This document shows positions 1,743 through 39,079 of a stretch of 64,000 bases of DNA, piece after piece. The stretch spans positions 38,105 through 102,104 of the forward strand of contig DYGU01000003.1 in the NCBI GenBank assembly GCA_020724525.1. The letters are read 5' to 3'. How positions within the stretch are numbered: position 1 is the stretch's first letter; every line of letters starts with the position of its first letter. A program made the position numbers and the translations under genes. This DNA is from Dehalococcoides mccartyi (GTDB taxonomy: Bacteria; Chloroflexota; Dehalococcoidia; GIF9; DYGU01). The notes beneath the pieces are model-generated. The model searched no databases, had not been told where the DNA came from, and saw only the letters and a list, made by a program, of their open reading frames with translations.

Positions 1743-1816
1743 TGGCTGGGGAACCAGGATTCGAACCTGGCCTAACGGATCCAGAGTCCGCTGTCCTACC
1801 GCTAGACGATTCCCCA
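1743..1816 (-). tRNA. tRNA-Gln (anticodon CUG)
   Basis: Reverse complement TGGGGAATCGTCTAGCGGTAGGACAGCGGACTCTGGATCCGTTAGGCCAGGTTCGAATCCTGGTTCCCCAGCCA. Cloverleaf with 7-nt anticodon loop CUCUGGA (U33, anticodon CUG, R37), T-loop GGTTCGAATCC, encoded CCA. Near-identical in layout to E. coli tRNA-Gln. Confidence 0.8.
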
Positions 1817-5497: not shown

Positions 5498-6772
5498 TCA
5501 CACTGGAAAGTCACCCCAATCAAGCATCATCACATCAACAACGTCACCGGGCTTGATTGCTTCCACATCCTCGGGGATAATAGCTAAACCATTAGCCAGC
5601 GCCATGGAAGTTAAAATTCCCGAGCCCTGAGGACTGGTAAGAGAGGCAAAATATTGACCGTCTCGTTTGGTGACTACTACTCTGGCAAAAATACGACGAC
5701 CATCGCTGTTTTTAACAGTGTCCTCTATCACCGCCTTAATTGTTGGCTTAGCCAAATTTTTCTTCCCCATCATCTTCAAAATAACCGGGCGGGCAAAAAT
5801 CTCAAAGGTTACCATAACACTTACTGGATACCCGGGTAGACCCAGATGGGGAATTCTTCTCCCCGATTCGTCTTCAAAGAAACCGAAAGCTAATGGCTTT
5901 CCTGGTTTCATCCGCACCGTCCAGAAAGTTATCTTACCTTCACTAACTAAAACATCTTTGACCATGTCATAATCACCTCGGGATACCCCCCCGGATGTTA
6001 TCACCAAGTCAGAGTCAAACGCCTGACGAAGGGACTTCCTCAGAAAATCGAAGTCATCAGGGGCAATACCTATCATTTTAGGAATGCCTCCATAATGAAT
6101 AACTTGAGCCATCAAACTGTAGCTATTACTATTATAGATTTTACCGAGAGGAAGGGGCTGATCAATGTCAACCAACTCATTACCCGTAGCTAAAATAGCT
6201 ACAACAGGACGGCGATAGACCGAGACAGTAGCCTTACCTAATGAGGCCAATACTCCAATCCCAGCTGGACGAAGTACCATTTCTTTACTCATAATTAAAG
6301 CTCCTTTTTTAATATCCTCCCCAGCCCGACGGATGTTCGAACCTTTTGGCACCTCTTGACAAATACCAATCTCAGTTAACCTACTCCCGGGCATAATAGT
6401 TTTTCGCTCAGCTTCATCACTATCTTCAAACCTAATCACAACATCAGCTCCCTTAGGTATAGGAGCTCCGGTCATAATGCGGATAGCCGTACCCGGTTCC
6501 ACTTCCCTATCTTGAATATAGCCAGCAGCTAATTCACCAATTACCTTGAGCACTTTAGGTTGTTTAGGAGTAGCTCCACCAATACTGCTGAACTGAACTG
6601 CATAACCATCCATAGCTGCACTATCTAACGGCGGAATATCAAAGGGAGAATAGATATCCTCAGCCAAGACCTGTCCTAAACATTGGGTAATAGGCTTCGT
6701 TTCAGCTTCGAGAACATTTACCGAATTAAGTATTCTTGCCAGAGCTTCATCGACACTAATCATTTCTATCAC
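5498..6772 (-). CDS. moeA: molybdopterin molybdotransferase
   Basis: ISVDEALARIL...DIPPLDSAAMDGYAV...SGGVSRGDYD, canonical MoeA motifs. 424 aa. Confidence 0.9.
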   Translation of the reverse strand: MIEMISVDEALARILNSVNVLEAETKPITQCLGQVLAEDIYSPFDIPPLDSAAMDGYAVQFSSIGGATPKQPKVLKVIGELAAGYIQDREVEPGTAIRIMTGAPIPKGADVVIRFEDSDEAERKTIMPGSRLTEIGICQEVPKGSNIRRAGEDIKKGALIMSKEMVLRPAGIGVLASLGKATVSVYRRPVVAILATGNELVDIDQPLPLGKIYNSNSYSLMAQVIHYGGIPKMIGIAPDDFDFLRKSLRQAFDSDLVITSGGVSRGDYDMVKDVLVSEGKITFWTVRMKPGKPLAFGFFEDESGRRIPHLGLPGYPVSVMVTFEIFARPVILKMMGKKNLAKPTIKAVIEDTVKNSDGRRIFARVVVTKRDGQYFASLTSPQGSGILTSMALANGLAIIPEDVEAIKPGDVVDVMMLDWGDFPV

Positions 6773-12634: not shown

Positions 12635-12654
12635 ATCCAAAAGGTTAAACCTTT

Positions 12655-12774
12655 AAGTCAGTCCAGCGAGGCTGGCAAGGGGAAATATGGCACAAAACTG
12701 TAATAGAGCTACACCCACATCAGAGCACTGCCCTCTGAAAACCTCTTGCCACTCAGGGGTAAGAGGTTTTCTTT
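12655..12774 (+). promoter_or_regulatory. PyrR-binding attenuator leader: binding loop plus intrinsic terminator
   Basis: AGUCAGUCCAGCGAGGCUGGCAAGGGG at 12656..12684 resembles the PyrR binding-loop consensus (UCCAG-GAGGCU-GCAAGG). Downstream hairpin AACCTCTT-N13-AAGAGGTT (12740..12768) is followed by TTTCTTT immediately before the pyrR ATG. The hairpin 3' arm contains the RBS (AAGAGG). Confidence 0.6.
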
Positions 12775-13323
12775 ATGCTTGAGAAAATTATCCTCTCGTC
12801 GGAAGACATCCAACGAGCCTTAGTCCGCATTGCCCACGAAATTGTGGAAAGAAATAAGGGGGCTCACGAACTCGTCTTTGTCGGTATGCAGACTCGAGGA
12901 GTACCCCTGGCAAAACGATTAGCCCACTTCATCCAAGAGGTCGAAGGTATCACCATTCCTGTAGGTGCCCTGGACATCACTCTTTACCGCGATGACCTCT
13001 CCTCTTTAAACCTCAAGCCAATCGTCCAGCGCACCGATATCCCCGCCAATATTACCGATAAAAGAGTCATCCTGGTTGATGATGTTCTTTATACCGGGCG
13101 GAGTATCCGAGCGGCTATGGATGCCCTCATAGACCTGGGACGACCTAAATCAATTCAATTAGTTGTGCTCATCGACCGAGGTCACCGTGAACTCCCTATC
13201 CGCGCCGATTACGCGGGCAAAAATATACCTACCTCCCGCTACGAAGAAATACAGGTCTATATAAAAGAAATAGACGGCAGAGACGAGGTGGCTATACTCA
13301 ATAGACAGGAGAATAGACTATGA
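12775..13323 (+). CDS. pyrR: bifunctional pyrimidine operon regulator / uracil phosphoribosyltransferase
   Basis: [29 protein letters not shown]...[20 protein letters not shown] (PRTase motif). 182 aa. Confidence 0.9.
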
Positions 13324-14333: not shown

Positions 14334-15680
14334 ATGTCCGAGGGAATACTTATAAAAGGTGGACGTATCCTTGACCCAGGTCAAGGACTAGATAGAATCG
14401 GTGACCTGCTCATCACCGACGGCAAAATCACCCGGTTCGGAGACAAGGGGGCAATACCGCCGGAAGGTTTCCATGCTCTTGATGCTAATGGCTTAATAGT
14501 CTGTCCCGGTTTTATTGACCTCCACTGCCACCTTCGCGAGCCTGGCTTTGAGGAGAAAGAAACTATTGCCACCGGGACAAGAGCTGCTACCAGGGGTGGT
14601 TTTACTACCATCTGCTGCATGTCCAATACTAACCCACCTTTAGATAACCGGGCTGCCGTTGATTATGTGAAAGCAAAAGCGGAGACACAAGGCACTGTTC
14701 GGGTCTTGCCCATAGGTTGTATTACTAAAGGCAGGAAAGGGGAAGAACTTACGGAAATGGCGGAACTGGCTGAGGCTGGAGTTATTGCCTTCAGTGACGA
14801 TGGAGAACCGGTAGTAAATTCAGCCATTATGTGCCACGCCCTTGATTACGCTTCTGCCTTAGGTCTGATGGTTATTGATCACTGTGAGGACAGGGCTTTG
14901 ACTAATGGTGGTCTTATGAACGAGGGATGGGTGGCAACTCGGCTTGGTCTAAAGGGGATACCAGCAGCCGCTGAAGAAATTATGGTGGCTCGGGATTTAG
15001 CTTTAGCCCGATTGACTAAAGCCAGACTTCATATCGCCCATATCACCACCGAAGGTTCCGTAGACCTCATCCATCGGGCTAAAGAGAAAGGAATTCTGGT
15101 TACTGCTGAAGTTACTCCCCACCACCTGACTTTGACTGAAGACAGAGTCATGGGCTGGCACTGGGGAAAGAATAATATCACCTACGATACTAACGCCAAG
15201 GTAAATCCACCCTTGCGTACTTCTAAGGACATTGATGCCCTAATCAGGGGGGTAAAGCTGGGTATAATTGATGCCATTGCTACTGACCACGCCCCCCACA
15301 CCTTAACGGACAAAATGTGCGAGTTTGGGATAGCTGCCTTCGGTATTAGCGGTCTGGAAACAGCCTTTGGTTGCCTGATGAGTCTGGTACCTGACGGCAA
15401 ACTTGACTTGGTCACTTTAATCTCCAAACTAACGGCTGAGCCTGCCAAGATTATCGGTACAAAATATAGAGAATTGGGCACTCTCAAAATAAGTGCCCCA
15501 GCCGATATTACCCTTTTTGACCCCACAAAAGAATGGATAGTTGACAGCCATAACTTTGCCTCTAAGGGCAAAAACACCCCCTTTGATGGTTACCGGTTCA
15601 AAGGCAAAATAATGGCAACCATATTCGGTGGCAAGATAGTTTATAAAGACGACTCAGTTAAACTCGAAATAAAGCAATGA
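14334..15680 (+). CDS. pyrC: dihydroorotase
   Basis: GFIDLHCHLREPG metal-binding motif. 448 aa. Confidence 0.9.
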   Translation: MSEGILIKGGRILDPGQGLDRIGDLLITDGKITRFGDKGAIPPEGFHALDANGLIVCPGFIDLHCHLREPGFEEKETIATGTRAATRGGFTTICCMSNTNPPLDNRAAVDYVKAKAETQGTVRVLPIGCITKGRKGEELTEMAELAEAGVIAFSDDGEPVVNSAIMCHALDYASALGLMVIDHCEDRALTNGGLMNEGWVATRLGLKGIPAAAEEIMVARDLALARLTKARLHIAHITTEGSVDLIHRAKEKGILVTAEVTPHHLTLTEDRVMGWHWGKNNITYDTNAKVNPPLRTSKDIDALIRGVKLGIIDAIATDHAPHTLTDKMCEFGIAAFGISGLETAFGCLMSLVPDGKLDLVTLISKLTAEPAKIIGTKYRELGTLKISAPADITLFDPTKEWIVDSHNFASKGKNTPFDGYRFKGKIMATIFGGKIVYKDDSVKLEIKQ

Positions 15681-16777
15681 CCAGAAAAACAATTTTAGCC
15701 TTAGAAGACGGCTCAGTCTACGAAGGTTATTCCTTTGGTGCTGAGACTACTACCTATGGCGAAGTCGTCTTCGATACCAGTATGACCGGCTACCAGGAGA
15801 TGCTCACCGATCCCTCCTTTGCCGGGCAAATTTTAGTCGCTACCTATCCCCTTATTGGCAATTACGGCATCAATGATGAAGATTTTGAGTCAAAACAAAT
15901 CCAGGTGAGGGGCTTCGTTGTCCGGGAATATTGTCCTGCACCCAGCCACTGGCAGAGCCAGAAAACTTTGCAGGAGTTTCTTTTAGCCAATGGCATTCCC
16001 GGGATTAGCGGCATTGATACTCGAGCTTTAACCCGCCGCCTTCGTTCAGTAGGAGTGATGATGGGCATTGTCACTTCAGAGATGACAGCAAAAGAAGCCC
16101 TGAAGGAACTTAAGAAATTACCCCGATATGATTCCACTGACTTTGTCAAAGAAGTTACCACCAGTGAGTCATACCACTGGGCATTAGCTTCCTCAAAAGA
16201 TAAGTTGGATGCTACCTTCCAGGTTGTGGTTGTTGACCTGGGTATCAAATATAATATCCTGCGCATCTTGAGCCGTCTTGGTTGCCAGGTAACTGCTGTC
16301 CCATGTACCACCTCAGCCGACGAAATTTTGAGCTTAAATCCTGACGGTATTGTCCTTTCTTCCGGTCCTGGTGACCCGGCTTTGCTCAGCTATATGGAAA
16401 AAACAGTAAAGGGACTCATTACCAAAAAGCCAATTATGGGTATTTGCCTGGGACACCAACTTATTGGGCGCGCCTTTGGGGCTAAGACTTTCAAGCTAAA
16501 ATTCGGTCACCGGGGTGGTAATCATCCCGTCCGTGGCCTTGCCACCGGCAGAGTCCATATTACCGCTCAGAACCATGGCTATGCCGTAGACGCTGATACC
16601 TTGAAAGGTGGTTTAGAAGTCAGCCACATAAATTTAAACGATGGCACCGTAGAAGGTCTGCGACATAAAGAGCTACCCACCCTGTCCATCCAGTACCACT
16701 CCGAAGCCTCTCCCGGACCAAGGGACAATGAATACTTGTTTGAAAGATTTTTGAAGATGGTAAGGGAGAAGAAATGA
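15677..16777 (+). CDS. carA: carbamoyl-phosphate synthase small (glutaminase) subunit
   Basis: CarA N-domain and GATase domain (GICLGHQLI...HRGGNHP). Overlaps the next gene by ATGA. Confidence 0.9.
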   Translation: MTRKTILALEDGSVYEGYSFGAETTTYGEVVFDTSMTGYQEMLTDPSFAGQILVATYPLIGNYGINDEDFESKQIQVRGFVVREYCPAPSHWQSQKTLQEFLLANGIPGISGIDTRALTRRLRSVGVMMGIVTSEMTAKEALKELKKLPRYDSTDFVKEVTTSESYHWALASSKDKLDATFQVVVVDLGIKYNILRILSRLGCQVTAVPCTTSADEILSLNPDGIVLSSGPGDPALLSYMEKTVKGLITKKPIMGICLGHQLIGRAFGAKTFKLKFGHRGGNHPVRGLATGRVHITAQNHGYAVDADTLKGGLEVSHINLNDGTVEGLRHKELPTLSIQYHSEASPGPRDNEYLFERFLKMVREKK

Positions 16778-18054
16778 TTCCCCAAGAAACGGTGGTAAAT
16801 ACAATTTCAGTAGTGAGCAAGGCAATAAAACAGAAAATTGAAGATTCCAGCTGGGATTACCGGGGCGAATTTACCAAAGCGTATACTCATGGGTTCCATT
16901 CTTATCCAGCTATGATGATCCCCCAAGTTGCCCGAAGATTAATACTGGAGTATAGCAACGAGGGGGATTCTTTACTTGACCCCTTTTGTGGTTCGGGAAG
17001 CGTTTTAGTGGAGGCAAAGCTAAATAAGCGTTACTCTTTCGGGATTGACCTAAATCCTCTAGCTATTTTGATTGCACGTGTTAAGACGAGACCTATTGAA
17101 CCTAAGCTACTTACTAAACAATTGTGGAATATTCTAGAAAACTTAAATGCCTTACAAATAGAAGAGATAGAAGAACCAAATTTTTTCAATATTCGTTTCT
17201 GGTTTAAGGAAATGGTCATCTTTCAACTAGCCAAACTTAAAACAATAATAAGCAATATAGAAGCAACCGAGGTGAGAGAATTCTTCCAAGTTGTTTTTAG
17301 CGAAGTTGTAAGATTAAGCTCGAATTCGCGTAGTTCTGAATTCAAATTATATCGTTACCCTTATGAGCGCTTACAAAGCCATGAGCCAGACCCAATAAAA
17401 CTTTTTAAGAACAAAGCCATGGCTAACATAGCCGGAATGGAAAAGTATTACAGCGAAGCTCGTGACCCATACTGGGCTCGACCTATTCTAGGTGACACAA
17501 CAAAACTTACCCAAGTTCTTCAACATCCGATACATATTGTAGTAACCTCTCCACCTTATGGAGATAGTCGCACTACAGTGGCTTATGGTCAATTTTCAAG
17601 GCTCTCTAGCCAGTGGTTAGGACTTGAAGGATATGAAAATGTTGATAAAAAATCTCTTGGCGGAATCTCAGTTGCAACCTTACATTGCTCGTTACCCTCA
17701 GAAACTTTAAGTGAGGTAATCAAGGTCATAGGGAAAGCGGACGAACGCCGGGCTAAAGATGTACTCAGCTTCTATATTGACTTGAATAAAGCTCTAATTG
17801 AAATCGATAAGGTGATGAAAAAGAGGGGAGTACTGTGCTTTGTTATAGGCAACAGGTCTGTCAAAGGAATCAGGTTGCCTACAGATATAATCTTAGCTGA
17901 GTTGCTGACTAATTTGGGGTATTGTCATCTGGCGACGATTATCAGGAACATACCAAGTAAGGCAATGCCTTTACGAAATAGTCCAAGTAATATTGCTGGC
18001 AGAGTATCTGACACAATACACAAAGAAAACATAGTTATTATGAGAAAGGGGTAA
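16774..18054 (+). CDS. SAM-dependent DNA amino-methyltransferase (N4-cytosine or N6-adenine; FxGxG...SPPY)
   Basis: Motif I LLDPFCGSGSVLVEA, then a 180-aa insert, then motif IV VVTSPPYGD. Visibly lower GC than flanking pyr genes. Sits between carA and carB. Confidence 0.65.
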   Translation: MIPQETVVNTISVVSKAIKQKIEDSSWDYRGEFTKAYTHGFHSYPAMMIPQVARRLILEYSNEGDSLLDPFCGSGSVLVEAKLNKRYSFGIDLNPLAILIARVKTRPIEPKLLTKQLWNILENLNALQIEEIEEPNFFNIRFWFKEMVIFQLAKLKTIISNIEATEVREFFQVVFSEVVRLSSNSRSSEFKLYRYPYERLQSHEPDPIKLFKNKAMANIAGMEKYYSEARDPYWARPILGDTTKLTQVLQHPIHIVVTSPPYGDSRTTVAYGQFSRLSSQWLGLEGYENVDKKSLGGISVATLHCSLPSETLSEVIKVIGKADERRAKDVLSFYIDLNKALIEIDKVMKKRGVLCFVIGNRSVKGIRLPTDIILAELLTNLGYCHLATIIRNIPSKAMPLRNSPSNIAGRVSDTIHKENIVIMRKG

Positions 18055-18061
18055 ATGTCCG

Positions 18062-19012
18062 ATGGCTAATGATTACAAACAACCGGTTGCCTTCGAAGAG
18101 CGGGGCGAAACTTTTGTTAACTTAAATTTAGTAAGAAATTCACTTCGAAAATTTGTGCTCGAGCGATTGAATTTTGACCCATCAGAAGCGGAGAAAGTTC
18201 CAGAATATGAAATCCCTAAACTATTCAGGAAAGAAAAGCTATCACTCCAAGATGAAAAAATAATTTACCAAGCTAAACAAAAAATTCCATCCCTCCAAAA
18301 AATCCTTAATGAGGCTATCGAGACCACTAAGAAAACAACACCCAAAATTCTTGCTCCTAGTTACATTAAAGCTCATTTCGGTGAATGCGTAACAGCATTA
18401 GAACCAAGGGCTTACAAAATTTACCTTGACTATGAAGAGAAGGCATTTCTATCAGCGATAGACTCATGGATTTTGCAGAATCAGAGCACTATAAACAGCC
18501 TTATCGAAAAAGGTTTATCACCATCTGATCTGGTTAAAGAAGCTATTAAATTATCTTACCCTTTAGTGCAGAAGCTAGAATTTGAATCTGGCCAGACACG
18601 GAAAGCCAGGGTAGGTAGAACCTTTGAATTAGTAATAGAGTATCTATTAGGTAGAATTGGCATCCCTTGTCAAAAGCCCCGAGGAAAGCAGCATAGGAAG
18701 ATTCTTAAAAGGGTAGATCTTGTCATACCTGACCAGATTACCGCAATCGAGCGTCCTGATAAAGCATATTTCTTATCTTATAAGCGGACACTTAGGGAGA
18801 GGTGGAAGCAAACTATCCCAGAACGAAAGCCAAGTTGGAGGGTTTTCCTCTTAACCCAAGATGAAGAACTAACTGAAGATAAAGCAAAAGAGATTGATGA
18901 ACTTGGTATGATTGTATACGTGAGAGATGAACTGAAAAATAAAGACTACTTAGCTCAAAAACCCTGGGTAAGGAGGTTATCCGATTTACCCAAAGATTTG
19001 AGCTTCTCATAG
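18062..19012 (+). CDS. putative type II restriction endonuclease (PD-(D/E)XK-like core)
   Basis: 316 aa, AT-rich, immediately downstream of the MTase. C-terminal half GRTFELVIEYLLGRIGIP...KRVDLVIPD...SYKRTLRERWKQ resembles an REase catalytic core (D...E.K plus TLRERWKQ-like motif). Family not identifiable without a search. Confidence 0.4.
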   Translation: MANDYKQPVAFEERGETFVNLNLVRNSLRKFVLERLNFDPSEAEKVPEYEIPKLFRKEKLSLQDEKIIYQAKQKIPSLQKILNEAIETTKKTTPKILAPSYIKAHFGECVTALEPRAYKIYLDYEEKAFLSAIDSWILQNQSTINSLIEKGLSPSDLVKEAIKLSYPLVQKLEFESGQTRKARVGRTFELVIEYLLGRIGIPCQKPRGKQHRKILKRVDLVIPDQITAIERPDKAYFLSYKRTLRERWKQTIPERKPSWRVFLLTQDEELTEDKAKEIDELGMIVYVRDELKNKDYLAQKPWVRRLSDLPKDLSFS

Positions 19013-19069
19013 AGCAAGTTGAGCTAAGCTTAGAAGAGTTTATAAAGCCACTTTGAAGGAGGGGAAGAG

Positions 19070-19294
19070 ATGGCTAAGAAATACACCATAATTCTAGAAC
19101 CCAATTATCCTGAGGAGGGGTATACTGTCAGGGTGCCTACTCTTCCTGGATGCATTACTTATGGGCGAACCAAAGAGGAGGCTCTGAAAAGAGCCAAGGA
19201 AGCCATAGAAGGCTTTATTGAAGGACTACAAAAAGCAGGCGAGCCAATCCCTGAAGAAGTTGCCCCAATAGAGTTGGACACGGTGACTGTTTAG
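19070..19294 (+). CDS. HicB-like antitoxin domain protein (UPF0150/DUF1902-like), no HicA partner
   Basis: MAKKYTIILEPNYPEEGYTVRVPTLPGCITYGRTKEEALKRAKEAIEGFIEG fits the HicB N-domain pattern (V.VP.LPGC.T.G.T.EEAL.N.KEAIE). RBS GGAGGGGAAGAG. No HicA-sized ORF nearby. Confidence 0.6.
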   Translation: MAKKYTIILEPNYPEEGYTVRVPTLPGCITYGRTKEEALKRAKEAIEGFIEGLQKAGEPIPEEVAPIELDTVTV

Positions 19295-19335: not shown

Positions 19336-22300
19336 ATGCCTAAAATCTCTAAAGTCCTTGTTATTGGTTCAGGACCGATAATTATCGGACAGGCAGCGGA
19401 GTTTGACTATGCCGGCACCCAAGCCTGTAAAGCTCTCCGGGAGGAAGGAGTTACTTCAGTGCTGGTAAATTCAAACCCGGCAACTATTATGACCGATGAA
19501 GGCATTGCCGATATTGTCTATATTGAGCCATTGACCGCAGAGGTCTTAGAACGAATTATTGCTCGAGAGCACCCTGATGGACTGCTGCCAACCCTGGGTG
19601 GGCAGACGGGACTCAATTTAGCCGTGGAATTAGCCGATGCCGGCATCCTCGACAAATATAATGTCAGACTTCTGGGAACACCCCTGGAGACCATCAAAAA
19701 AGCTGAGGAGAGGTCTTTATTTAAGAAATTGCTTATTGACATCGGTGAGCCGGTCCCAGAAAGTGACACCGTTCATTCTGTAGAAGAAGCCCGCCAGTTG
19801 GTAAAGAGGCTCGGACTACCGGTTATTATCCGTCCCTCTTACACCTTGGGTGGTACAGGTGGTGGTATTGCCCACACTATGGAAGAACTTGAGACCATTG
19901 TAGTCAGAGGATTAGCTGCCAGTATGAGCCATGAGGTGTTGGTAGAAAAGTCAGTCCTCGGCTGGAAAGAACTTGAGTATGAGGTGATGCGGGATGGGGC
20001 TGACAACTGCATTACTGTATGTAATATGGAAAACATAGACCCTATGGGCATCCATACCGGCGATAGCATTGTTGTCGCTCCCAGTCAGACCTTAACCGAT
20101 AAAGAATATCAGATGCTCCGCTCAGCCAGCCTCAAGATTATCCGAGCCCTGGGCATTGAAGGTGGTTGCAATATCCAGTTTGCTCTTACCCCTCATCCCA
20201 TAGTTGCCCGAAAATGGGCTCCAGACCAACTAAATGTCAAAAACAGCCAGTATTATGTCATTGAGGTTAATCCACGGGTTAGCCGTAGCTCTGCCTTAGC
20301 CAGCAAAGCTACTGGTTATCCTATTGCCCAGGTTGCTGCTAAAATTGCCATCGGTAAAAGACTGGATGAAATTCCCAATCGGGTTACGGGGAAGACCATG
20401 GCTGCTTTTGAACCAGCCTTAGATTATTGTGTGGTTAAAATCCCCCGCTGGCCCTTTGATAAATTCCCTTCCGGTGAACGTACCATAGGTACCCAAATGA
20501 AGGGAACCGGGGAGGCTATGGCAATTGAAAGAAGCTTCGAAGCTGCCTTCCAAAAAGCTGTCCGCTCCTTAGAATTCGGTAAAAGGTCTCTACTATGGGA
20601 AGATAATAACAGGGCAATGGCTAAAAACCTTAACGACTTTGCCTTACACCCAAACGACCTAAGGTTGTGGGCAATTATGGCAGCCCTAAGACGAGGCTTT
20701 AAACCTGAAGAATTAGCTGAGTACACGGGTATTGACCCCTGGTTCATATACAAATTTCTCAATATTGTTGAGATGGAAAAACGTCTGCTCAAGGAACCCC
20801 TGACTCCAGACCTCCTGTGGCGGGCTAAACGCCTCGGCTTCTCCGATGAACAAATCGGCACTTTGGCTGATAGGTTGCCAGAGCAAGTAAGACAACTCCG
20901 TCATAACTGGCAAATCCGCCCGGTGTATAAAACGGTTGATACTTGTGCTGCTGAATTTGATGCCGAAACGCCATACTTCTATAGCACTTATGAAACGGAG
21001 AACGAAACAGAGCCAATAAAAGAGAAAAAGGCTGTGGTTATCGGCAGTGGTCCAATACGAATTGGACAGGGTATCGAATTTGATTATTCCAGCGTCCATG
21101 CTACCTGGGCACTCCGTGAAGCTGGTATCAAGAGCATCATGGTCAACTCCAATCCGGAGACGGTATCTACCGACTTTGACACCAGTGACCGTCTTTACTT
21201 TGAAGCTTTGGATGAAGAGAGCCTGCGGGATATCCTCGAAAACGAAAGCCATTCACCAGGAAACCCCAACTCCACCCCACCATCTATCGTCCAGTTCGGC
21301 GGGCAAACAGCTATCAATCTAACTGAACCCTTAGCCCGTAGCGGCATGCCCATCCTCGGTTCCAGCGCTGAAACTATAGATATAGCTGAAGACCGTCATC
21401 GCTTTGAAGACTTTCTCAGCCGTTTAGGCATCCCCCAACCCCCAGGTGCTGGAGTAAATTCCTTACAAGCCGGGCTTAATGTAGCTAAACTTTTAGACTA
21501 TCCGGTACTGGTACGACCCAGTTATGTCCTTGGTGGCAGAGCTATGGAAATTGTCTACAATGAAACTGAACTAATTAGATACATGTCTCTTGCCTTAGAA
21601 TTAGACAGTCGACACCCCATATTGATTGATAAATACCTTCAAGGTAAAGAAGTTGAGGTAGATGCCATTGGCGACGGAGAACGGGTTCTCATCCCGGGTA
21701 TAATGGAGCATATAGAGCGAGCTGGCGTCCATAGTGGCGATTCTATCGCCGTCTATCCCGGCTTAAATCTTACCGAAGCTGAAGTAAACACCATTGTTGA
21801 CTACACCATCAAAATTGCCCTGGCTCTCCAAATTAAAGGCTTAATGAATATCCAGTTTGTCATTACACCCCCCACAAGAAATAGTCCGTCTTCCGTGTAT
21901 GTCCTTGAAGTAAACCCTCGTGCCAGCCGAACCGTGCCCTTCATCTCCAAAGTCACCGACATACCTATGGTCCGAATTGCTACTAAGGTAATGTTAGGCA
22001 TCAGTCTCAAAGAACAAGGTTATGAGACCGGCTTGTGGAAAAAGCAAAAACTAATAGCTATCAAGGCGCCCGTATTTTCCATGTCCAAACTGGCGGGCGT
22101 AGACAGCTACCTCGGCCCCGAGATGAAATCAACTGGCGAGGTCATGGGAATTGACTACACCTTTGAGGCTGCACTCGTCAAAGCTCTTTTAGCTTCAGGA
22201 CTTATGCTTCCCAAAAAGGGTAGCCTCCTTCTCAGTATTGCCGACCGCGATAAAGCCGAAGCCCTGCCCGTAATCAAGAAACTCTATTCTAAAGGCTACA

Positions 22301-22635
22301 GACTTTATGCTACTGAAGGTACCGCCATCATGCTCCAGGCAAGTGGTCTTTCTGTAAAAATGACCAGTAAAAAGCTAAGCGAAGGACATCCCAATGTTAT
22401 CGATATTATCAGTGATGGGGCAGTGGACGGGGTAGTAAATACCATTACCGGGGGGCGGGTACCTTTTCGGGATGGATTTTACATCCGGCGAGCCGCTGCC
22501 GAGAAAAGAATACCCTGCTTTACCTCCCTGGATACTTTCCAGGTAGCTGTGGAAGCCCTTGTTAATGGGGGACAATTCTTCACCATCCAAGCCTTGAGAG
22601 AATACTTTGGGGATTCCCTCCTGTCATTGCGGTGA
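19336..22635 (+). CDS. carB: carbamoyl-phosphate synthase large subunit
   Basis: 1099 aa, duplicated ATP-grasp halves ([31 protein letters not shown]... and [21 protein letters not shown]...) plus MGS-like C-domain. Confidence 0.95.
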
Positions 22636-23467: not shown

Positions 23468-23884
23468 ATGGTGGTTAGCCGGAAAATTAGTCTTAAGACA
23501 GGAGGGCTTTGCGATATCATTAACATCACTCCCCAAATAGTCAAGGAAGTGGCTGAAACAGGCATTAATAGCGGTATTGCCGCTTTATTTGTAGCCGGCT
23601 CAACCGCTGGACTGACCACCATCGAATTTGAGTCAGGGCTTATCGATGACTTCAAAAATATGTGGAATAGAGTAATACCTAAAGACATTCCCTACCGCCA
23701 TGACCAAGCCTGGGGGGAAGGTAACGGCTTTTCCCATGTCCGAGCCTCTCTTTTAGGTGCTTCTTTAACTATTCCTTTTACTAATAAAGCTTTAACTTTG
23801 GGTACCTGGCAGCAGATAGTCTTGGTTGACTTCGACAATCGTCCCCGGTCAAGAGAAATTATAGTCCAGGTGATAGGTGAATAA
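23468..23884 (+). CDS. YjbQ/UPF0047 family protein
   Basis: 138 aa. GTWQQIVLVDFDNRPRSREIIVQVIG matches the YjbQ family C-terminus. Confidence 0.65.
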   Translation: MVVSRKISLKTGGLCDIINITPQIVKEVAETGINSGIAALFVAGSTAGLTTIEFESGLIDDFKNMWNRVIPKDIPYRHDQAWGEGNGFSHVRASLLGASLTIPFTNKALTLGTWQQIVLVDFDNRPRSREIIVQVIGE

Positions 23885-24006
23885 AACAGACTATTTACCA
23901 ATGCTTATCCACTACCCTGAACAAGGCGGAGAAACCCTCTTAAACAGGGAGTTTGACACTAACTTCTATAAACTCTATACTTAATTATTGGAAAGGAAGT
24001 ATTCTG

Positions 24007-24126
24007 ATGGCAAATGAAGTTGGCAAAAGATATATTTGCAGTAAATGTGGAAGTGAATTTATTGTCACCAGGGGTGGTGAAGGTACCCTTACCTGTTGTG
24101 GACAAGTTATGGTCATCAAGAAATAG
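24007..24126 (+). CDS. desulforedoxin-like small FeS4 protein (39 aa)
   Basis: MANEVGKRYICSKCGSEFIVTRGGEGTLTCCGQVMVIKK, with C-x2-C-x15-C-C spacing and overall similarity to Desulfovibrio gigas desulforedoxin ([36 protein letters not shown]). RBS GGAAAGGAAG. Below the ORF-track size cutoff. Confidence 0.65.
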   Translation: MANEVGKRYICSKCGSEFIVTRGGEGTLTCCGQVMVIKK

Positions 24127-24144
24127 AGCTTTGTAGGTAGTCTT

Positions 24145-24288
24145 GTGGCAAATCAGTTAGGTAAAAGATATCGCTGTGGGGTTTGTGGCACTGAAGTGTT
24201 ATGTACTAAAGCCGGTGAGGGCACCGCTATTTGCTGTGAACAAGAAATGGTAGTTCAGGAACCTCGCCCAGTTCCATCATCGGACTAA
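24145..24288 (+). CDS. desulforedoxin-like small protein, second tandem paralog (47 aa, GTG start)
   Basis: VANQLGKRYRCGVCGTEVLCTKAGEGTAICCEQEMVVQEPRPVPSSD, with the same C-x2-C-x15-C-C pattern. 18 nt downstream of the first copy. Confidence 0.55.
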   Translation: MANQLGKRYRCGVCGTEVLCTKAGEGTAICCEQEMVVQEPRPVPSSD

Positions 24289-24382
24289 TCTCCTATAAAA
24301 GTGCCAAAACAGTTTCTTAAACTACAGCAATCAAAGTCCGATTAAAGTTCTTGCCCAAATTTGAAAATCTGGCTGGGTAAAA

Positions 24383-24486
24383 AGAGATTGCTGAAAAAGT
24401 CCTTATGTCTTTCCAAAGTAAACCTATGCTTAACCTGTCTCCAAATTCGGGGCCCCCTGAAAAACTTCGTTTTTCAGGGGTTTTAA
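24383..24486 (+). repeat. intergenic repeat element, copy A (about 105 nt, terminal hairpin)
   Basis: Shares about 90% identity over about 100 nt with 37344..37448. Ends in hairpin CCCTGAAAAAC-TTC-GTTTTTCAGGG followed by GTTTTA. Confidence 0.6.
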
Positions 24487-24503
24487 AAAGGAGGTATAGC
24501 AAG

Positions 24504-25754
24504 ATGAGAAAACAAAAGACCTCCCTAAGTTGGGCAATTTTAATAATAACCATAGTCCTCTTATCCGTCAGTAGTCTGATTTCGTGCCAGTCAACTGATA
24601 AAAAGACGACCCTTGACCAGAAACAAATAGCTGAGGTAAAACGCGGTAATTTAATAGTTAGCGTTGACGCTGACGGCAACCTATCCATGCCTCGCCAGGC
24701 TAAATTAGCTTTTGACACCACAGGCACAATTCAGGAGATAAAAGTAAGAGATGGGGATAAAGTAACCAAAGAACAATTGTTAGCCAGGCTGGATACCTCT
24801 GCCCTCGAATTAGCTTTAAAATTAGCCGAAAACGACCTTGAAATAGCCGAATATACCCTTATGCAGACCGCTGGGCTTACCCCGCCCGGGTGGGAAAAAG
24901 TCCGTCCTGATTATACCATTGTTTACGGGACTGATATACCCGGTGCCCGAGGCCTCTTGAAAGAAATTGAGAACTTATTAACCCGAGCCAAAGAGTTATT
25001 AACTTCGGGAGAGATTAGTCAAGCCCAATCACAGCTTCAATTAGCCTATGACAAGTTGACTTCAGCCCAGTACAAGTTAGGGGGAAAGTACTTTGCCTAT
25101 CCTCTTTCGGTTAAGTTAGCCGAATTAAAGGTAGAAAAAGCCAGAATGGCTGTAGATAAAGCTAATATAGAGCTACAAAAAGCTCTGATTATCGCCCCTT
25201 TTAATGGAATTGTGGCCAATGTGGGGGCTAAAGAAGGAGATAAATTATCTGCATTCAATTATGCCACCACTATTGTTGTCCACTTGATTGACCCCAGCAT
25301 AATAGAGATGAAAGCCTTCATAGATGAAATAGATGCCCCTAAAGTAAAATTAGGGCAAGAAGCTATTATCACCCTTGATACTTTGCCTGAAATCGAACTA
25401 AAAGGAAAAGTAACCTTCGTCTCCCCAATACCCCTTATCCAGGCTGGTGTAGTGTCTTATAAAGCCACCTTAAACCTATCACATCCTGATGGTGTTGAAC
25501 TCAAAGATGGCATGACTGCCACTGCCAGGTTTATTATTGACCGTAAAGAAAATGTATTACTATTGCCCAATCGAGCTATAAAAGGCACACCAGGGAACCA
25601 CTGGGTGGAAGTGGTTAAGAACGAGGTAACTAAACCAAGACCAGTAGTCCTTGGCGCCAGTGATGGCAAAAATACTGAAGTTATATCCGGTCTAACCGAG
25701 GGAGAGAAAGTAATAGTGGAGATAGTCCGCCCTCCAGTACCTCGACTCTTCTAA
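24504..25754 (+). CDS. efflux transporter periplasmic adaptor (HlyD/MacA family)
   Basis: N-terminal TM segment, coiled-coil and beta-barrel/lipoyl-like regions. RBS AAGGAGG before ATG 24504. The ORF track starts inside repeat copy A at 24405. Confidence 0.8.
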   Translation: MRKQKTSLSWAILIITIVLLSVSSLISCQSTDKKTTLDQKQIAEVKRGNLIVSVDADGNLSMPRQAKLAFDTTGTIQEIKVRDGDKVTKEQLLARLDTSALELALKLAENDLEIAEYTLMQTAGLTPPGWEKVRPDYTIVYGTDIPGARGLLKEIENLLTRAKELLTSGEISQAQSQLQLAYDKLTSAQYKLGGKYFAYPLSVKLAELKVEKARMAVDKANIELQKALIIAPFNGIVANVGAKEGDKLSAFNYATTIVVHLIDPSIIEMKAFIDEIDAPKVKLGQEAIITLDTLPEIELKGKVTFVSPIPLIQAGVVSYKATLNLSHPDGVELKDGMTATARFIIDRKENVLLLPNRAIKGTPGNHWVEVVKNEVTKPRPVVLGASDGKNTEVISGLTEGEKVIVEIVRPPVPRLF

Positions 25755-25812
25755 ATAAAGCCATGATTTTAAAGTCATTATAAAGTAATGTGAAACGCCT
25801 TTAGCCCAAAAT

Positions 25813-26481
25813 ATGATCAGGTTAGAGAACATAATAAAAGTTTATAAGACAGGAACCGTTGAGGTCAGAGCCTTAAATGGACTGAGCTGCCGAGTAGAAC
25901 AAGGGGAAATGGTCTCTATTATAGGACCTTCAGGTTCGGGTAAGTCTACTTTGATGCACATCATTGGCTGCCTTGATAGACCTACTTCAGGCAAGTATAT
26001 ATTAGAAGGAATGGACGTAAGTCTCCTGAGAGAAGACCAGTTAGCCAAGATAAGGAATAAGAAAGTAGGCTTCGTCTTCCAGTTTTTCAATCTATTGCCG
26101 CGGGTTACTGCCTTAGCTAATGTGGAGTTGCCTCTGATTTATGGCGGACTTCGTAACCGTCGCCAGCGTGTCCTTGATGCTTTAGAATCAGTAGGGCTGA
26201 GCCATCGAGCTCACCACCTTCCCAGTCAGTTGTCGGGGGGAGAGCACCAAAGGGTGGCTATTGCCCGGGCTCTGGTTAACAACCCAGACTTAATTTTAGC
26301 TGATGAACCTACCGGAAATCTGGATACCCAGACAAGTAAAGAGATTATGCTCATTTTGCAACAGCTAAATCAAAAAGGAATAACCATTATTATAGTGACC
26401 CATGAAGCTGATATTGCTGCCTACACCCAGAGAACTATTTATCTCCGGGATGGTCAAATAGTCAAAGAGGTAAGAAGGTGA
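25813..26481 (+). CDS. ABC transporter ATP-binding protein (MacB/LolD type)
   Basis: [12 protein letters not shown] Walker [16 protein letters not shown] signature, [11 protein letters not shown] Walker B. Confidence 0.9.
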
Positions 26482-27725
26482 GTCTGTGGGAAAGTTTTAT
26501 CACTGCCTGGCGAGCTTTATTAAATAATAAGCTACGCTCAGCCCTGACCATGCTTGGTATCATAATTGGAGTTGGTGCTATCATTTTCCTGGTATCCCTG
26601 GGAAGAGGGCATCAGGCTAATATCACTGGTATATTCGAATCTATGGGGGCTGACCTTCTTTACGCCATAGGAAGCAGCCGGATAACGACCCAAGCGCTGC
26701 AAGGAATATCTGGCGCCACCGCCTCCCTCACCCTTGAGGATGCCAAGGCTCTTAAAGACCCCATTAAAGCTCCATCTATAGCCCTTGTAGCTCCAATTAT
26801 TCAAATAATGGGCAACCTATCCTTTGAGAAAGAAAACACTACCACCACCATTGTTGGGGTTACTCCCGAAGCTCAGGACATATTAAGGTACTCTGTAGCT
26901 AATGGTGTCTTTATCTCAGAACAAGATATCAAGTTAAAAGCCAGTGTCGCTGTGCTTGGAGACAGGACAGCCAAAGACCTCTTTGGCCTGCGAGACCCCC
27001 TCGGGGAGAAGATTAAAATTAATGGGCGGAACTTTGAAGTTATCGGGGTACTGGAGAAAAAAGGGGCTTTCATGGTAACTATGGATGACTTCGTAATAAT
27101 CCCCTTAACCACAATGCAAACCAGAATCCTTGGGGTGATTACCCCGCGGGGGCAGCCTGTCCAGGCCATTGGTGTTAAGCCATTAAGTATTGACCACTTA
27201 GATGCTGCTACTGAAGAAATTGCTTCTATTCTGCGTCAGCGCCATCGGATCAGGGAAGGGGAAGACGATGACTTTGCTGTCATTAACATGCAAGAAATTC
27301 TTAATCGGATGCGGGAGGTGCTGGCTATTTTTCAAATCTTCCTGGGTAGCGTTGGCGGCATCTCTTTACTCGTTGGGGGTATCGGTATTATGAATATAAT
27401 GCTTGTCTCTGTAGCAGAAAGAACCCGAGAAATTGGCATCCGCAAAGCGGTTGGGGCTAAACATCGGGATATTCTGCGCCAATTTTTGGTCGAAGCGGCA
27501 ACACTCGGGCTTTCCGGCGGTGCTATAGGAATTCTCCTGGCTATAATAGGGATCCGTTTGATTACCGGGGTAGAGCTTGGACCTTATTCTATCAAAGCTC
27601 CTCTTTCACCCGATATTGTCATTATTGCCTTATCTGTAGCTATTTTTACCGGGCTTGCCGCCGGTCTCTATCCCGCCTTTAGAGCTGCCCGTCTTGACCC
27701 AATTCAGGCTTTACGCTACGAATAA
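26478..27725 (+). CDS. ABC transporter permease (FtsX/MacB-like)
   Basis: N-terminal TM segment, large periplasmic domain, C-terminal FtsX 4-TM bundle. 4-nt overlap with the ATPase gene. Confidence 0.85.
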   Translation: MSLWESFITAWRALLNNKLRSALTMLGIIIGVGAIIFLVSLGRGHQANITGIFESMGADLLYAIGSSRITTQALQGISGATASLTLEDAKALKDPIKAPSIALVAPIIQIMGNLSFEKENTTTTIVGVTPEAQDILRYSVANGVFISEQDIKLKASVAVLGDRTAKDLFGLRDPLGEKIKINGRNFEVIGVLEKKGAFMVTMDDFVIIPLTTMQTRILGVITPRGQPVQAIGVKPLSIDHLDAATEEIASILRQRHRIREGEDDDFAVINMQEILNRMREVLAIFQIFLGSVGGISLLVGGIGIMNIMLVSVAERTREIGIRKAVGAKHRDILRQFLVEAATLGLSGGAIGILLAIIGIRLITGVELGPYSIKAPLSPDIVIIALSVAIFTGLAAGLYPAFRAARLDPIQALRYE

Positions 27726-28316: not shown

Positions 28317-28895
28317 TTAGCCTTTCCCGTATATTTCCCGTTCCAGAAGCCGGACACGGCTCTTATCTACTGTAGAATAAAGCTCGGCACCTAAGTAAAG
28401 GACTGGTTTTATTTGCTCTAAGTCAACAGTTTGCTTTGGCGTAAAAGCTTCTTTCTGAAAATGTACTGCCACAATTTCGCCAACTACCCAGACGTGGTCT
28501 CCGTAAGTCTTATCGTCTACCACCTTACATTCGTAAGCAGCGTAAGCCGCTGTCAATATCGGCACCCTTATCCGTATTGGTTTGTCCTGAGCAATAGCGA
28601 ATTTCTTAAATTTGTCTACCTCTTCCCCTTTACTACCCCCAACAGCCGCCACCACTTCTGCAAACTCAAAAGGGACGAAATTGACCCCAAACTCCTGGCT
28701 CTCCACAATAAGCTTGTAAGTAAACCTTTTAGGTGATATGGAAACGCCATACAAGGGAGGTTTAAGAGAAATGGAACTGTGCCAGGCGGCTGCCATAGCA
28801 TTAATCTTCTCACCAGCCCGGGCGGTAACTATAGCCGCCACCTTAGGATAATGCTGATAAAACTCACCAATACTCTCGGTAACTATTTTAGCCAT
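28317..28895 (-). CDS. flavin reductase family protein
   Basis: Flavin-reductase-like domain (KVAAIVTARAGEKINAMAAAW...VVGEIVAVH). ATG 28895 with GGAGGTG RBS, preferred over the ORF-track TTG at 28910. Confidence 0.7.
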   Translation of the reverse strand: MAKIVTESIGEFYQHYPKVAAIVTARAGEKINAMAAAWHSSISLKPPLYGVSISPKRFTYKLIVESQEFGVNFVPFEFAEVVAAVGGSKGEEVDKFKKFAIAQDKPIRIRVPILTAAYAAYECKVVDDKTYGDHVWVVGEIVAVHFQKEAFTPKQTVDLEQIKPVLYLGAELYSTVDKSRVRLLEREIYGKG

Positions 28896-28928
28896 GTCAC
28901 CTCCATTCAATTTTGTATTTATATGAGG

Positions 28929-32625: not shown

Positions 32626-32702
32626 CGGGGTGTAGCGCAGCCTGGTAGCGCACCTGAATGGGGTTCAGGTGGTCGGCGGTTCAAATCCGCCCACCCCGAC
32701 CA
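32626..32702 (+). tRNA. tRNA-Pro (anticodon GGG)
   Basis: CGGGGTGTAGCGCAGCCTGGTAGCGCACCTGAATGGGGTTCAGGTGGTCGGCGGTTCAAATCCGCCCACCCCGACCA. Anticodon loop AUGGGGU, T-loop GGTTCAAATCC, encoded CCA. Confidence 0.85.
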
Positions 32703-38762: not shown

Positions 38763-38905
38763 AACCAGGGCGTAGATAAGCAATACTAAACCCTGGTTAG
38801 TACTGCTTTCCTACGCTCGCATTAACGAGATCAGGTTCCAAGGGTTCCCCGTAACTAACCGCGGGATCTCAGCCAAAGCTTTTACCCAAGCACCCCCAGC
38901 AGCAA
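38763..38905 (-). ncRNA. TPP (THI-box) riboswitch with terminator-type expression platform
   Basis: Minus-sense GGGGUGCUUGGGUAAAAGCUUUGGCUGAGAUCCCG...GGGAACCCUUGGAACCUGAUCUCGUUAAUGCGAGCGUAGGAAA carries the conserved CUGAGA and ACCUGAUCU/GCGUAGG elements. Followed by hairpin AACCAGGG-N21-CCCTGGTT plus a U-run directly upstream of the thiC RBS. Confidence 0.85.
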
Positions 38906-39079
38906 ACTAAATTGTTTTAAATAATATACAATATTCCAGATTAAAAAACAATCTGCCGGAAGAGAAATTGTTTACCTATGCTTATCTACCATCATGAACA
39001 AAGTCAGAAACCCGTACCCACCCTCTCCCTTGAAGGGAGAGGAATAAGGTAAGGGTGACAAAATTGGAAGGGCAGGTAA

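Follow-up and report, generated by a model that had tools for sequence, protein, structure and literature searches.

Desulforedoxin (Dx) of Desulfovibrio gigas is the product of a single gene, and its identical chains of 36 amino acids (aa) each hold one Fe in a distorted tetrahedral Cys4 site. To our knowledge, Dx has until now been regarded in two ways, as a rare homodimeric curiosity of D. gigas and as the module at the N terminus of desulfoferrodoxin. Here, we describe two consecutive Dx-like open reading frames (ORFs), A and B, in a stretch of 64,000 nucleotides (nt) from a genome labeled Dehalococcoides mccartyi (assembly GCA_020724525.1, contig DYGU01000003.1, positions 38,105 to 102,104); this whole stretch is called the window below. 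A preliminary description of the DNA had picked out both frames, of 39 and 47 aa, by a shared C-x2-C-x15-C-C spacing, and both are present on the forward strand (Table 1), with the motif formed by Cys11, Cys14, Cys30, and Cys31. They also share the N-terminal sequence MAN-x-x-GKRY-x-C; B has in addition Cys20 and the tail QEPRPVPSSD, and A ends in KK. A six-frame hidden Markov model (HMM) scan of the entire window found A and B as its only Dx-like ORFs.

Three described systems are close enough for comparison. D. gigas Dx (1dxg/1cfw) is, like A and B, a standalone chain of about 36 to 40 aa with a MAN(E/Q) start and the same motif and fold. According to PMC3116461, which cites Archer et al. 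(1995), it is a homodimer; the C-x2-C-x15-C-C motif is defined in the same source. In contrast, A and B are two nonidentical types that are always co-encoded or fused, which departs from the definition of a single-gene homodimer, and B adds Cys20, tolerance of His, Asp, or Asn as the fourth ligand, and a tail of 9 to 10 residues that Dx lacks. The N-terminal Dx domain of desulfoferrodoxin, or 2Fe superoxide reductase (2Fe-SOR; 1dfx, 1vzg, 2ji1), has the same Pfam domain and fold as A and B, but these have no neelaredoxin/SOR catalytic domain. Finally, a precedent for the loss of cysteines from a Dx domain is the atypical, or class III, SOR of Treponema pallidum, whose type of Dx domain is termed “ncDx” (noncanonical Dx) in SORGOdb (PMC3116461). 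Like some fused relatives of A and B, it has a Dx fold without metal ligands; its Cys-less domain is the N terminus of an enzyme, whereas the Cys-less A-B fusions are free-standing and carry a conserved tail.

A and B are two gene types in a fixed order

A scan with a B profile, covering one genome for each species, detected relatives in at least 367 species genomes from several phyla. At 90% identity, B sequences form over 100 clusters, almost all of them with 46 to 47 aa, and when the B profile was used in an exhaustive HMM search, 1,226 representatives at 50% identity were gathered (E up to 1e-3). The family is thus large, with over 1,200 clusters at the 50% level that are spread over Chloroflexota, MAGs (metagenome-assembled genomes) of the “Deltaproteobacteria”/Desulfobacterota type, Acidobacteriota, Bacillota, and Actinomycetota. 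The 80 best loci from the species-genome scan, a list that, like the other best-80 list used here, favors close relatives of the query, come mostly from Dehalococcoidia; it also includes MAGs labeled Deltaproteobacteria, Desulfobacteraceae or Desulfatiglandales, Acidobacteriota, and Leptospirales.

In every one of the 80 scorable B-seeded loci, that of the window included, an A-type ORF lies directly 5' of B on the same strand; one further locus, L067, is cut at a contig end and was left out of the count. When metagenome contigs were scanned with an A profile, more than 547 matches were found, and among the best 80 of these loci only L143 has room downstream yet no B. In this family, A followed by B is the rule, in hundreds of genomes from several phyla. 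Identity is 0.74 among A sequences and 0.73 among B sequences but 0.55 between the types, and an A and a B from the same genome (0.56) are no more alike than those from different genomes. The types also differ at defined positions, with Ile19, Val20, and Pro34 in A and Leu19, Cys20, and Glu34 in B. Judged by their sequences, A and B diverged long ago and form two ortholog groups, each conserved in its own right. In this regard, the preliminary description was right that the copies are standalone, and comparison with other genomes shows both ORFs conserved in relatives; what did not hold is that the tandem is unusual or reflects a duplication of Dx, given the family-wide order and the higher identity within types than between them.

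Single-chain fusions of the form A-linker-B make up at least 45 of the best 150 diverse representatives. These proteins have 80 to 120 aa and linkers of 5 to 30 residues, several show two PF06397 stretches, and they always hold one domain of each type. Some fusions with short linkers could be assembly or read-through artifacts (for example, P0143, whose linker has 5 to 6 residues). Because genes that are always adjacent are also found fused, their products would be expected to act together, which is evidence of the Rosetta-stone type for physical association.

Overall, the locus in the window is an unremarkable example of a widespread family whose family-level pattern appears to be undescribed. 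The searchable literature held nothing on a heterotypic or fused Dx pair, a PSSD tail, or an association with coenzyme A (CoA) clusters; most subscription bioinorganic journals lie outside that coverage, and an earlier description is possible.

Both ORFs are genes, and annotation handles them poorly

We examined coding status in an ortholog set of 80 loci, comprising the window and 79 related genome loci. The pN/pS ratio is 0.197 for A (74 orthologs) and 0.205 for B, indicating purifying selection on both, and mean pairwise differences at codon positions 1, 2, and 3 are 0.22, 0.12, and 0.56 for A and 0.20, 0.14, and 0.54 for B. A has 39 aa in 74 of the 80 loci, B has 46 to 47 aa in all of them, and a Shine-Dalgarno (SD)-like motif precedes A in 77 loci and B in 74. 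The conserved N terminus MANQLGKRY fixes the GTG at position 24145 as the start of B. A and B are real genes.

The distance from the stop of A to the start of B is 0 to 70 nt in 79 of the 80 loci, and exactly 0 nt in 11, which suggests cotranscription and possibly coupled translation. In 52 of 78 related loci, the 130 nt 5' of A contain a promoter match of 10/12 or better, compared with 1.8% of shuffled sequences, and 25 of these loci carry the perfect 12/12 form TTGACA-N17/18-TATAAT; promoter and terminator calls in this work are consensus matches only. A-B would form a transcription unit of its own, one that is probably strongly expressed. The promoter is mostly absent where a gene for an AMP-forming ligase sits directly upstream of A, suggesting that A-B is cotranscribed with the ligase there.

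The preliminary description had called the pair easily missed, and public records bear this out. On DNA identical to positions 24007 to 24288 of the window, JGI (L001, Ga0246235_100075) calls A only and NCBI (L002, QZGF01001078.1) calls B only. In more distant ENA contigs (L083 to L087), B alone is called though A is present. The 47-aa protein goes under the names “hypothetical,” “desulforedoxin,” “desulfoferrodoxin,” and “desulfoferrodoxin-like iron-binding protein”; since these proteins have no SOR domain, the “desulfoferrodoxin” names are overannotations. The family therefore exposes two systematic annotation problems, one gene being routinely missed and the other often misnamed.

A and B have a predicted desulforedoxin fold, but the ligands are not the best-conserved part of B

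The likeness to Dx that the Cys spacing had suggested was confirmed with PF06397 (Desulfoferrod_N), which scores 32.2 bits on A and 30.6 bits on B against a gathering cutoff of 23, so that the spacing is not coincidental. The same model matches 38 of 39 B-family members at E up to 0.01. For both ORFs, the top match among solved structures is D. gigas Dx (1dxg/1cfw), with E values of 2.5e-4 and 3.4e-4 that improve to 2e-5 and 7.5e-5 in family-profile searches; A is slightly closer to it than B (27.5 versus 26.3 bits). TIGR00319 (desulf_FeS4 domain), a stricter NCBIfam model of the same domain, gives 23.9 bits for A and 25.4 bits for B, below its cutoff of 36.05.

Two related identities were considered and rejected. 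The ORFs are not desulfoferrodoxins: they end at 39 and 47 aa without an SOR catalytic domain, and TIGR00320 (desulfoferrodoxin/2Fe-SOR) reaches 21.3 and 25.0 bits against a cutoff of 146.9, with the N-terminal 36 profile positions alone matched. Nor are they rubredoxins, since the two cysteines of the second knuckle are adjacent (C-C) and rubredoxin chains were matched only at E values of about 0.9.

Structure prediction agrees with the sequence matches. The AlphaFold2 (AF2) model of B (pLDDT of 80.8) has three short strands and a less confident end (mean of 61 for the last residues). With this model, Foldseek placed 1vzg (the desulfoferrodoxin N-terminal domain) and 1dxg (Dx) at the top, with a probability of 1.0 and a TMt of 0.78, and 1y07 among the weaker matches. 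In the model of a natural fusion, P0146 (pLDDT of 78, pTM of 0.67), the strand pattern is the same in the two halves, and one half superposes on 1dxg_A with a root mean square deviation of 0.8 Å over 36 residues (TMt of 0.90). Its linker (residues 41 to 50) has a mean pLDDT of 54 and residues 91 to 95 have a mean of 47, with residues 93 to 95 below 50. The pTM of this model is consistent with A and B halves that pack together, without proving it. Sequence and predicted fold alike place both ORFs in PF06397 and in the desulforedoxin fold.

The metal sites of the two types have fared differently. In A orthologs, Cys11, Cys14, and Cys31 are present in 74 of 74 sequences and Cys30 in 73, Lys13 is invariant, and the C-terminal KK is conserved. 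For B, we aligned 124 diverse domains with complete ends. The terminal Asp47 is found in all 124, and Gly6 and Arg8 are found in 123 each; the ligand positions follow, with Cys30 in 117, Cys14 in 112, and Cys11 in 110. The fourth ligand, at position 31, is Cys in 73 sequences, His in 32, Asp in 10, and Asn in 5, and position 20 is Cys in 78 and Val in 31. The most conserved positions of B are thus not metal ligands. Its tail, with the consensus Q-E-P-[RK]-x-[LIV]-P-S-[SA]-D, is of low confidence or disordered in the AF2 models yet ends in the invariant Asp.

In whole subfamilies of fused relatives, the cysteines are mostly or wholly lost, and GKRY, E-V-L-x-T-K-x-G, and the tail are kept. Such groups occur in marine Acidimicrobiia (alignment A3) and in actinobacteria, the latter group including P0295 of Mycolicibacterium thermoresistibile; no Pfam or NCBIfam model matched these Cys-less fused forms. 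P0295 itself is a Cys-poor A-B fusion of 103 aa from a cultured actinobacterium, annotated “hypothetical protein” (L168 to L171; gene at 6001 to 6312 of L169), and M. thermoresistibile may be a tractable genetic entry point to the fusions. Cys-containing and Cys-less members together provide a natural experiment on the metal dependence of a mini-metalloprotein fold. A comparable pattern is known from C+/C- zinc-ribbon ribosomal proteins, whose metal-binding cysteines are kept or lost by lineage while function is retained. These are also small and presumably highly expressed, but the parallel is an analogy, with no sequence relationship to A-B.

The preliminary description had read both peptides as FeCys4 modules. 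The Cys4 motif is there in both window ORFs, but a redox FeCys4 reading is not secure for B, given a fourth ligand that is Cys in just 73 of 124 domains and the Cys-less subfamilies. Each window chain has a full ligand set, a pattern compatible with either Fe or Zn.

A putative two-gene unit for a desulforedoxin-like heteromer

We consider it probable, with considerable room for doubt, that A-B is a two-gene unit encoding a Dx-like 1:1 heteromer in which B carries a docking tail. Here, we infer four elements: heteromer formation, the identity of the metal, docking by the tail, and the partner. A and B would be cotranscribed from their own near-consensus promoter and would assemble 1:1, as the heterotypic equivalent of the homodimer known from D. 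gigas. The canonical Cys4 site is kept in subunit A (39 aa), which would behave like classical Dx. Subunit B (47 aa) would contribute a Cys3+(Cys/His/Asp) site, the extra Cys20, and the flexible tail Q-E-P-R/K-x-x-P-S-S-D-COOH; the tail and the N-terminal G-K-R-Y most likely dock the complex onto a partner enzyme. Because the window copies retain every ligand, one metal ion per chain is expected, either Fe or Zn. With Fe, these copies could be redox active and the pair could serve as a rubredoxin-like one-electron carrier. Across the family, however, the Cys3His variants and the survival of Cys-less relatives suggest that the metal is mainly structural and that the conserved function probably resides in the fold and the tail. 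From the pattern come a heterodimer hypothesis that can be tested, a motif likely to serve in docking, and a candidate for the metabolic setting.

Several observations weigh against the heteromer. First, B does not always depend on A: in about 17 representatives (P0171, P0182, P0193, P0199, P0204, P0206, P0208, P0209, P0217, P0219, P0229, P0241, P0247, P0268, P0274, P0278, and P0280), it is fused, without any A, to an unrelated N-terminal domain. This conserved domain of about 60 aa (..P..FRW.I.G..Y.R..L..E.E.GS..G..) matched no Pfam family in the 10 proteins scanned, and the PSSD tail is kept in these fusions. Second, the window's own neighborhood holds no conserved partner. Third, the best-80 lists on which the pair counts rest lean toward close relatives. 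A further architecture is seen in P0265, where a B-like N-terminal domain precedes sequence that we take, by eye, to be desulfoferrodoxin-like.

Genomic contexts and alternative explanations

No universal neighbor of A-B was found among the related loci, which show at least three different contexts. The window type, with pyrK, yjbQ, A, B, and folE on the opposite strand, accounts for 29 of 80 loci. In 35 of 80 (about 44%), at least one of CoA_transf_3 (family III CoA-transferase), ECH (enoyl-CoA hydratase), AMP-binding, and Amidohydro_3 is encoded within 4 kb; the gene immediately upstream of A encodes an AMP-ligase in 14 loci, and the one immediately downstream of B encodes a family III CoA-transferase in 23. 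The third context has the order MTHFR, A, B, followed by lipA on the opposite strand. Similar acyl-CoA neighbors flank fused homologs in Acidimicrobiia and in a Bacillota MAG. In M. thermoresistibile, the P0295 gene stands between genes for an AMP-binding ligase and a cytochrome P450, in a cluster with an aldehyde dehydrogenase, a short-chain dehydrogenase/reductase, a thiolase-like/ChsH2-OB protein, an acyl-CoA dehydrogenase, and a family III CoA-transferase. On gene neighborhood, acyl-CoA enzymes are the only recurrent partner candidates.

The acyl-CoA neighbors support the strongest alternative, namely, that A-B is a nonredox adaptor or accessory subunit of acyl-CoA enzymes, stabilized by Zn and metal free in some lineages, with the tail of B inserting into or docking on CoA-transferase III, ECH, or the AMP-forming ligase. 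Retention of G-K-R-Y, E-V-L-x-T-K-x-G, and the tail in Cys-less relatives also fits such a role, as does the Cys3His set of 32 of the 124 B domains; Cys3His ligand sets are more typical of Zn sites. Yet a tblastn search of the 64-kb window found no family III CoA-transferase, ECH, AMP-ligase, or Amidohydro_3, and the loci in the pyrK-yjbQ/folE context have an independent promoter. Moreover, CoA-transferase and ECH paralogs are numerous in these phyla, so that part of the adjacency may be background. Taking both sides together, we hold the adaptor to be rather unlikely in this strict form. A broader formulation is a tentative possibility: A-B, as a pair or a fusion, would be a mini-protein family found across phyla whose function lies in a Dx-fold scaffold and a disordered PSSD tail, acting as a docking or accessory, possibly carrier-like, part of an acyl-CoA pathway (CoA-transferase III, ECH, AMP-ligase, and Amidohydro_3), and in window-like lineages it would be an independent, strongly expressed unit.

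Another account is that an ordinary desulforedoxin gene was recently duplicated in tandem, giving two redundant homodimeric FeCys4 electron carriers. It would explain why both ORFs pass PF06397, share the N-terminal and Cys motifs, and are 55% identical when their profiles are compared. It does not explain why an A and a B from one genome are no closer than those from different genomes, why each type resembles itself across genomes more than the other, or why order, lengths, type-specific residues, and tail are conserved across phyla and every fusion joins one domain of each type. We consider such a duplication improbable.

A role for B as a LysW-like carrier is still less probable. LysW is a tiny metal-ribbon globule with a flexible, conserved C-terminal tail and an acidic end, and B has a similar architecture, with its invariant terminal Asp; substrates might be tethered to this Asp or to nearby serines by an adjacent adenylating enzyme, and an ANL-family AMP-binding enzyme is indeed encoded immediately upstream in at least 14 loci and in Mycolicibacterium. 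However, no ATP-grasp (LysX-type) ligase or conserved biosynthetic operon occurs among the neighbors identified by Pfam, and no ligase is encoded near the window locus. The tail of B is Pro/Ser rich (PSSD) rather than of the acidic EDWGE type, and TIGR01206 gives 15 bits versus 53 on a fused homolog. With no significant similarity and a different tail chemistry, the resemblance is an analogy.

It is scarcely credible that A and B are chance open frames or decayed desulfoferrodoxin remnants: although they are very short, each public annotation calls only one of them, and the NCBIfam scores fall below curated cutoffs, the frames have pN/pS ratios of about 0.2 with third-position variation of 0.54 to 0.56, lengths, starts, and stops kept in 80 loci, conserved promoters and SD-like sequences, and more than 1,200 representatives at 50% identity, and no ORF of more than 41 aa and no neelaredoxin domain lies 3' of B. 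Both this account and recent duplication are contradicted by the conservation and identity data.

The locus in the window and its surroundings

The preliminary description had placed the pair between pyrK-yjbQ and an efflux operon, and this is right. On the upstream side are carB, a pyrK-like gene, and a UPF0047/YjbQ gene, and a MacA/MacB-type efflux operon is on the downstream side. Beyond this operon, folE and a flavin reductase gene lie on the opposite strand (Table 1).

Table 1. Features of the A-B locus and other elements of the window
Feature	Position	Strand	Details
ORF A, canonical-type desulforedoxin-like	24007-24126	+	39 aa; ATG start; MANEVGKRYICSKCGSEFIVTRGGEGTLTCCGQVMVIKK
ORF B, derived desulforedoxin-like	24145-24288	+	47 aa; GTG start; MANQLGKRYRCGVCGTEVLCTKAGEGTAICCEQEMVVQEPRPVPSSD
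Putative sigma-70-type promoter	23953-23981	+	TTGACA 23953-23958, 17-nt spacer, TATACT 23976-23981; 11/12 consensus match
Shine-Dalgarno-like sequence 5' of ORF A	23990-23999	+	GGAAAGGAAG; sequence reading
A-B spacer	24127-24144	+	18 nt, with weak SD-like GTAGGTAG; sequence reading
Hairpin followed by TTTT	24454-24484	+	CCCCTGAAAAA-cttcg-TTTTTCAGGGG; stem-loop 24454-24480; sequence and RNA fold
Efflux operon	24504-27725		MacA-like lipoprotein membrane-fusion protein, ABC ATPase, MacB/FtsX permease
Flavin-reductase-domain gene	28317-28910	-	
PyrR leader	12646-12776		
carA	15677-16777		
N6/N4 DNA methylase	16774-18054		
EcoRII-C-type endonuclease	18062-19012		
HicB-like antitoxin ORF	19070-19294		
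carB	19336-22635		
Thiamine pyrophosphate (TPP) riboswitch	38791-38907	-	70.7 bits; ordinary, unrelated to A-B
tRNA-Gln(CTG)	1743-1816	-	ordinary, unrelated to A-B
tRNA-Pro(GGG)	32626-32702	+	ordinary, unrelated to A-B

The noncoding stretch between B and the efflux operon (24289 to 24503, 215 nt) has a fold z-score of -2.2, and a permissive Rfam search of positions 23800 to 24600 matched no RNA family. Its hairpin begins 166 nt past the stop of B and stands directly 5' of GGAGG (24490 to 24494) and the ATG at 24504 of the membrane-fusion lipoprotein gene; the terminator consensus scan missed it because it is followed by only four T residues. It is possibly the terminator of A-B or else a leader or attenuator of the efflux operon, an assignment that is uncertain. 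Among the 80 relatives, an obvious hairpin with a T-run follows B in just 11.

The efflux operon separates B from folE in the window, and folE directly abuts B in 26 related loci, at a median distance of about 10 nt; the operon thus appears to be a lineage-specific insertion. The flavin reductase gene is flanked by folE and a PALP (threonine-synthase-like) gene. The median distance from B to the start of PALP in related loci is about 650 nt, and we read this as a position directly after folE. If PALP directly follows folE elsewhere, the flavin reductase gene may represent a second insertion specific to this lineage and close to the Dx pair, and a redox link between its product and A-B is conceivable.

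The pyrimidine operon upstream of the pair begins with a PyrR leader, followed by pyrR, pyrB, and pyrC. Between its carA and carB genes lie a DNA methylase gene and an endonuclease gene, and a HicB-like antitoxin ORF stands beside this restriction-modification pair in the same gap. Set within a biosynthetic operon, the block from 16774 to 19294 has the appearance of a mobile insertion.

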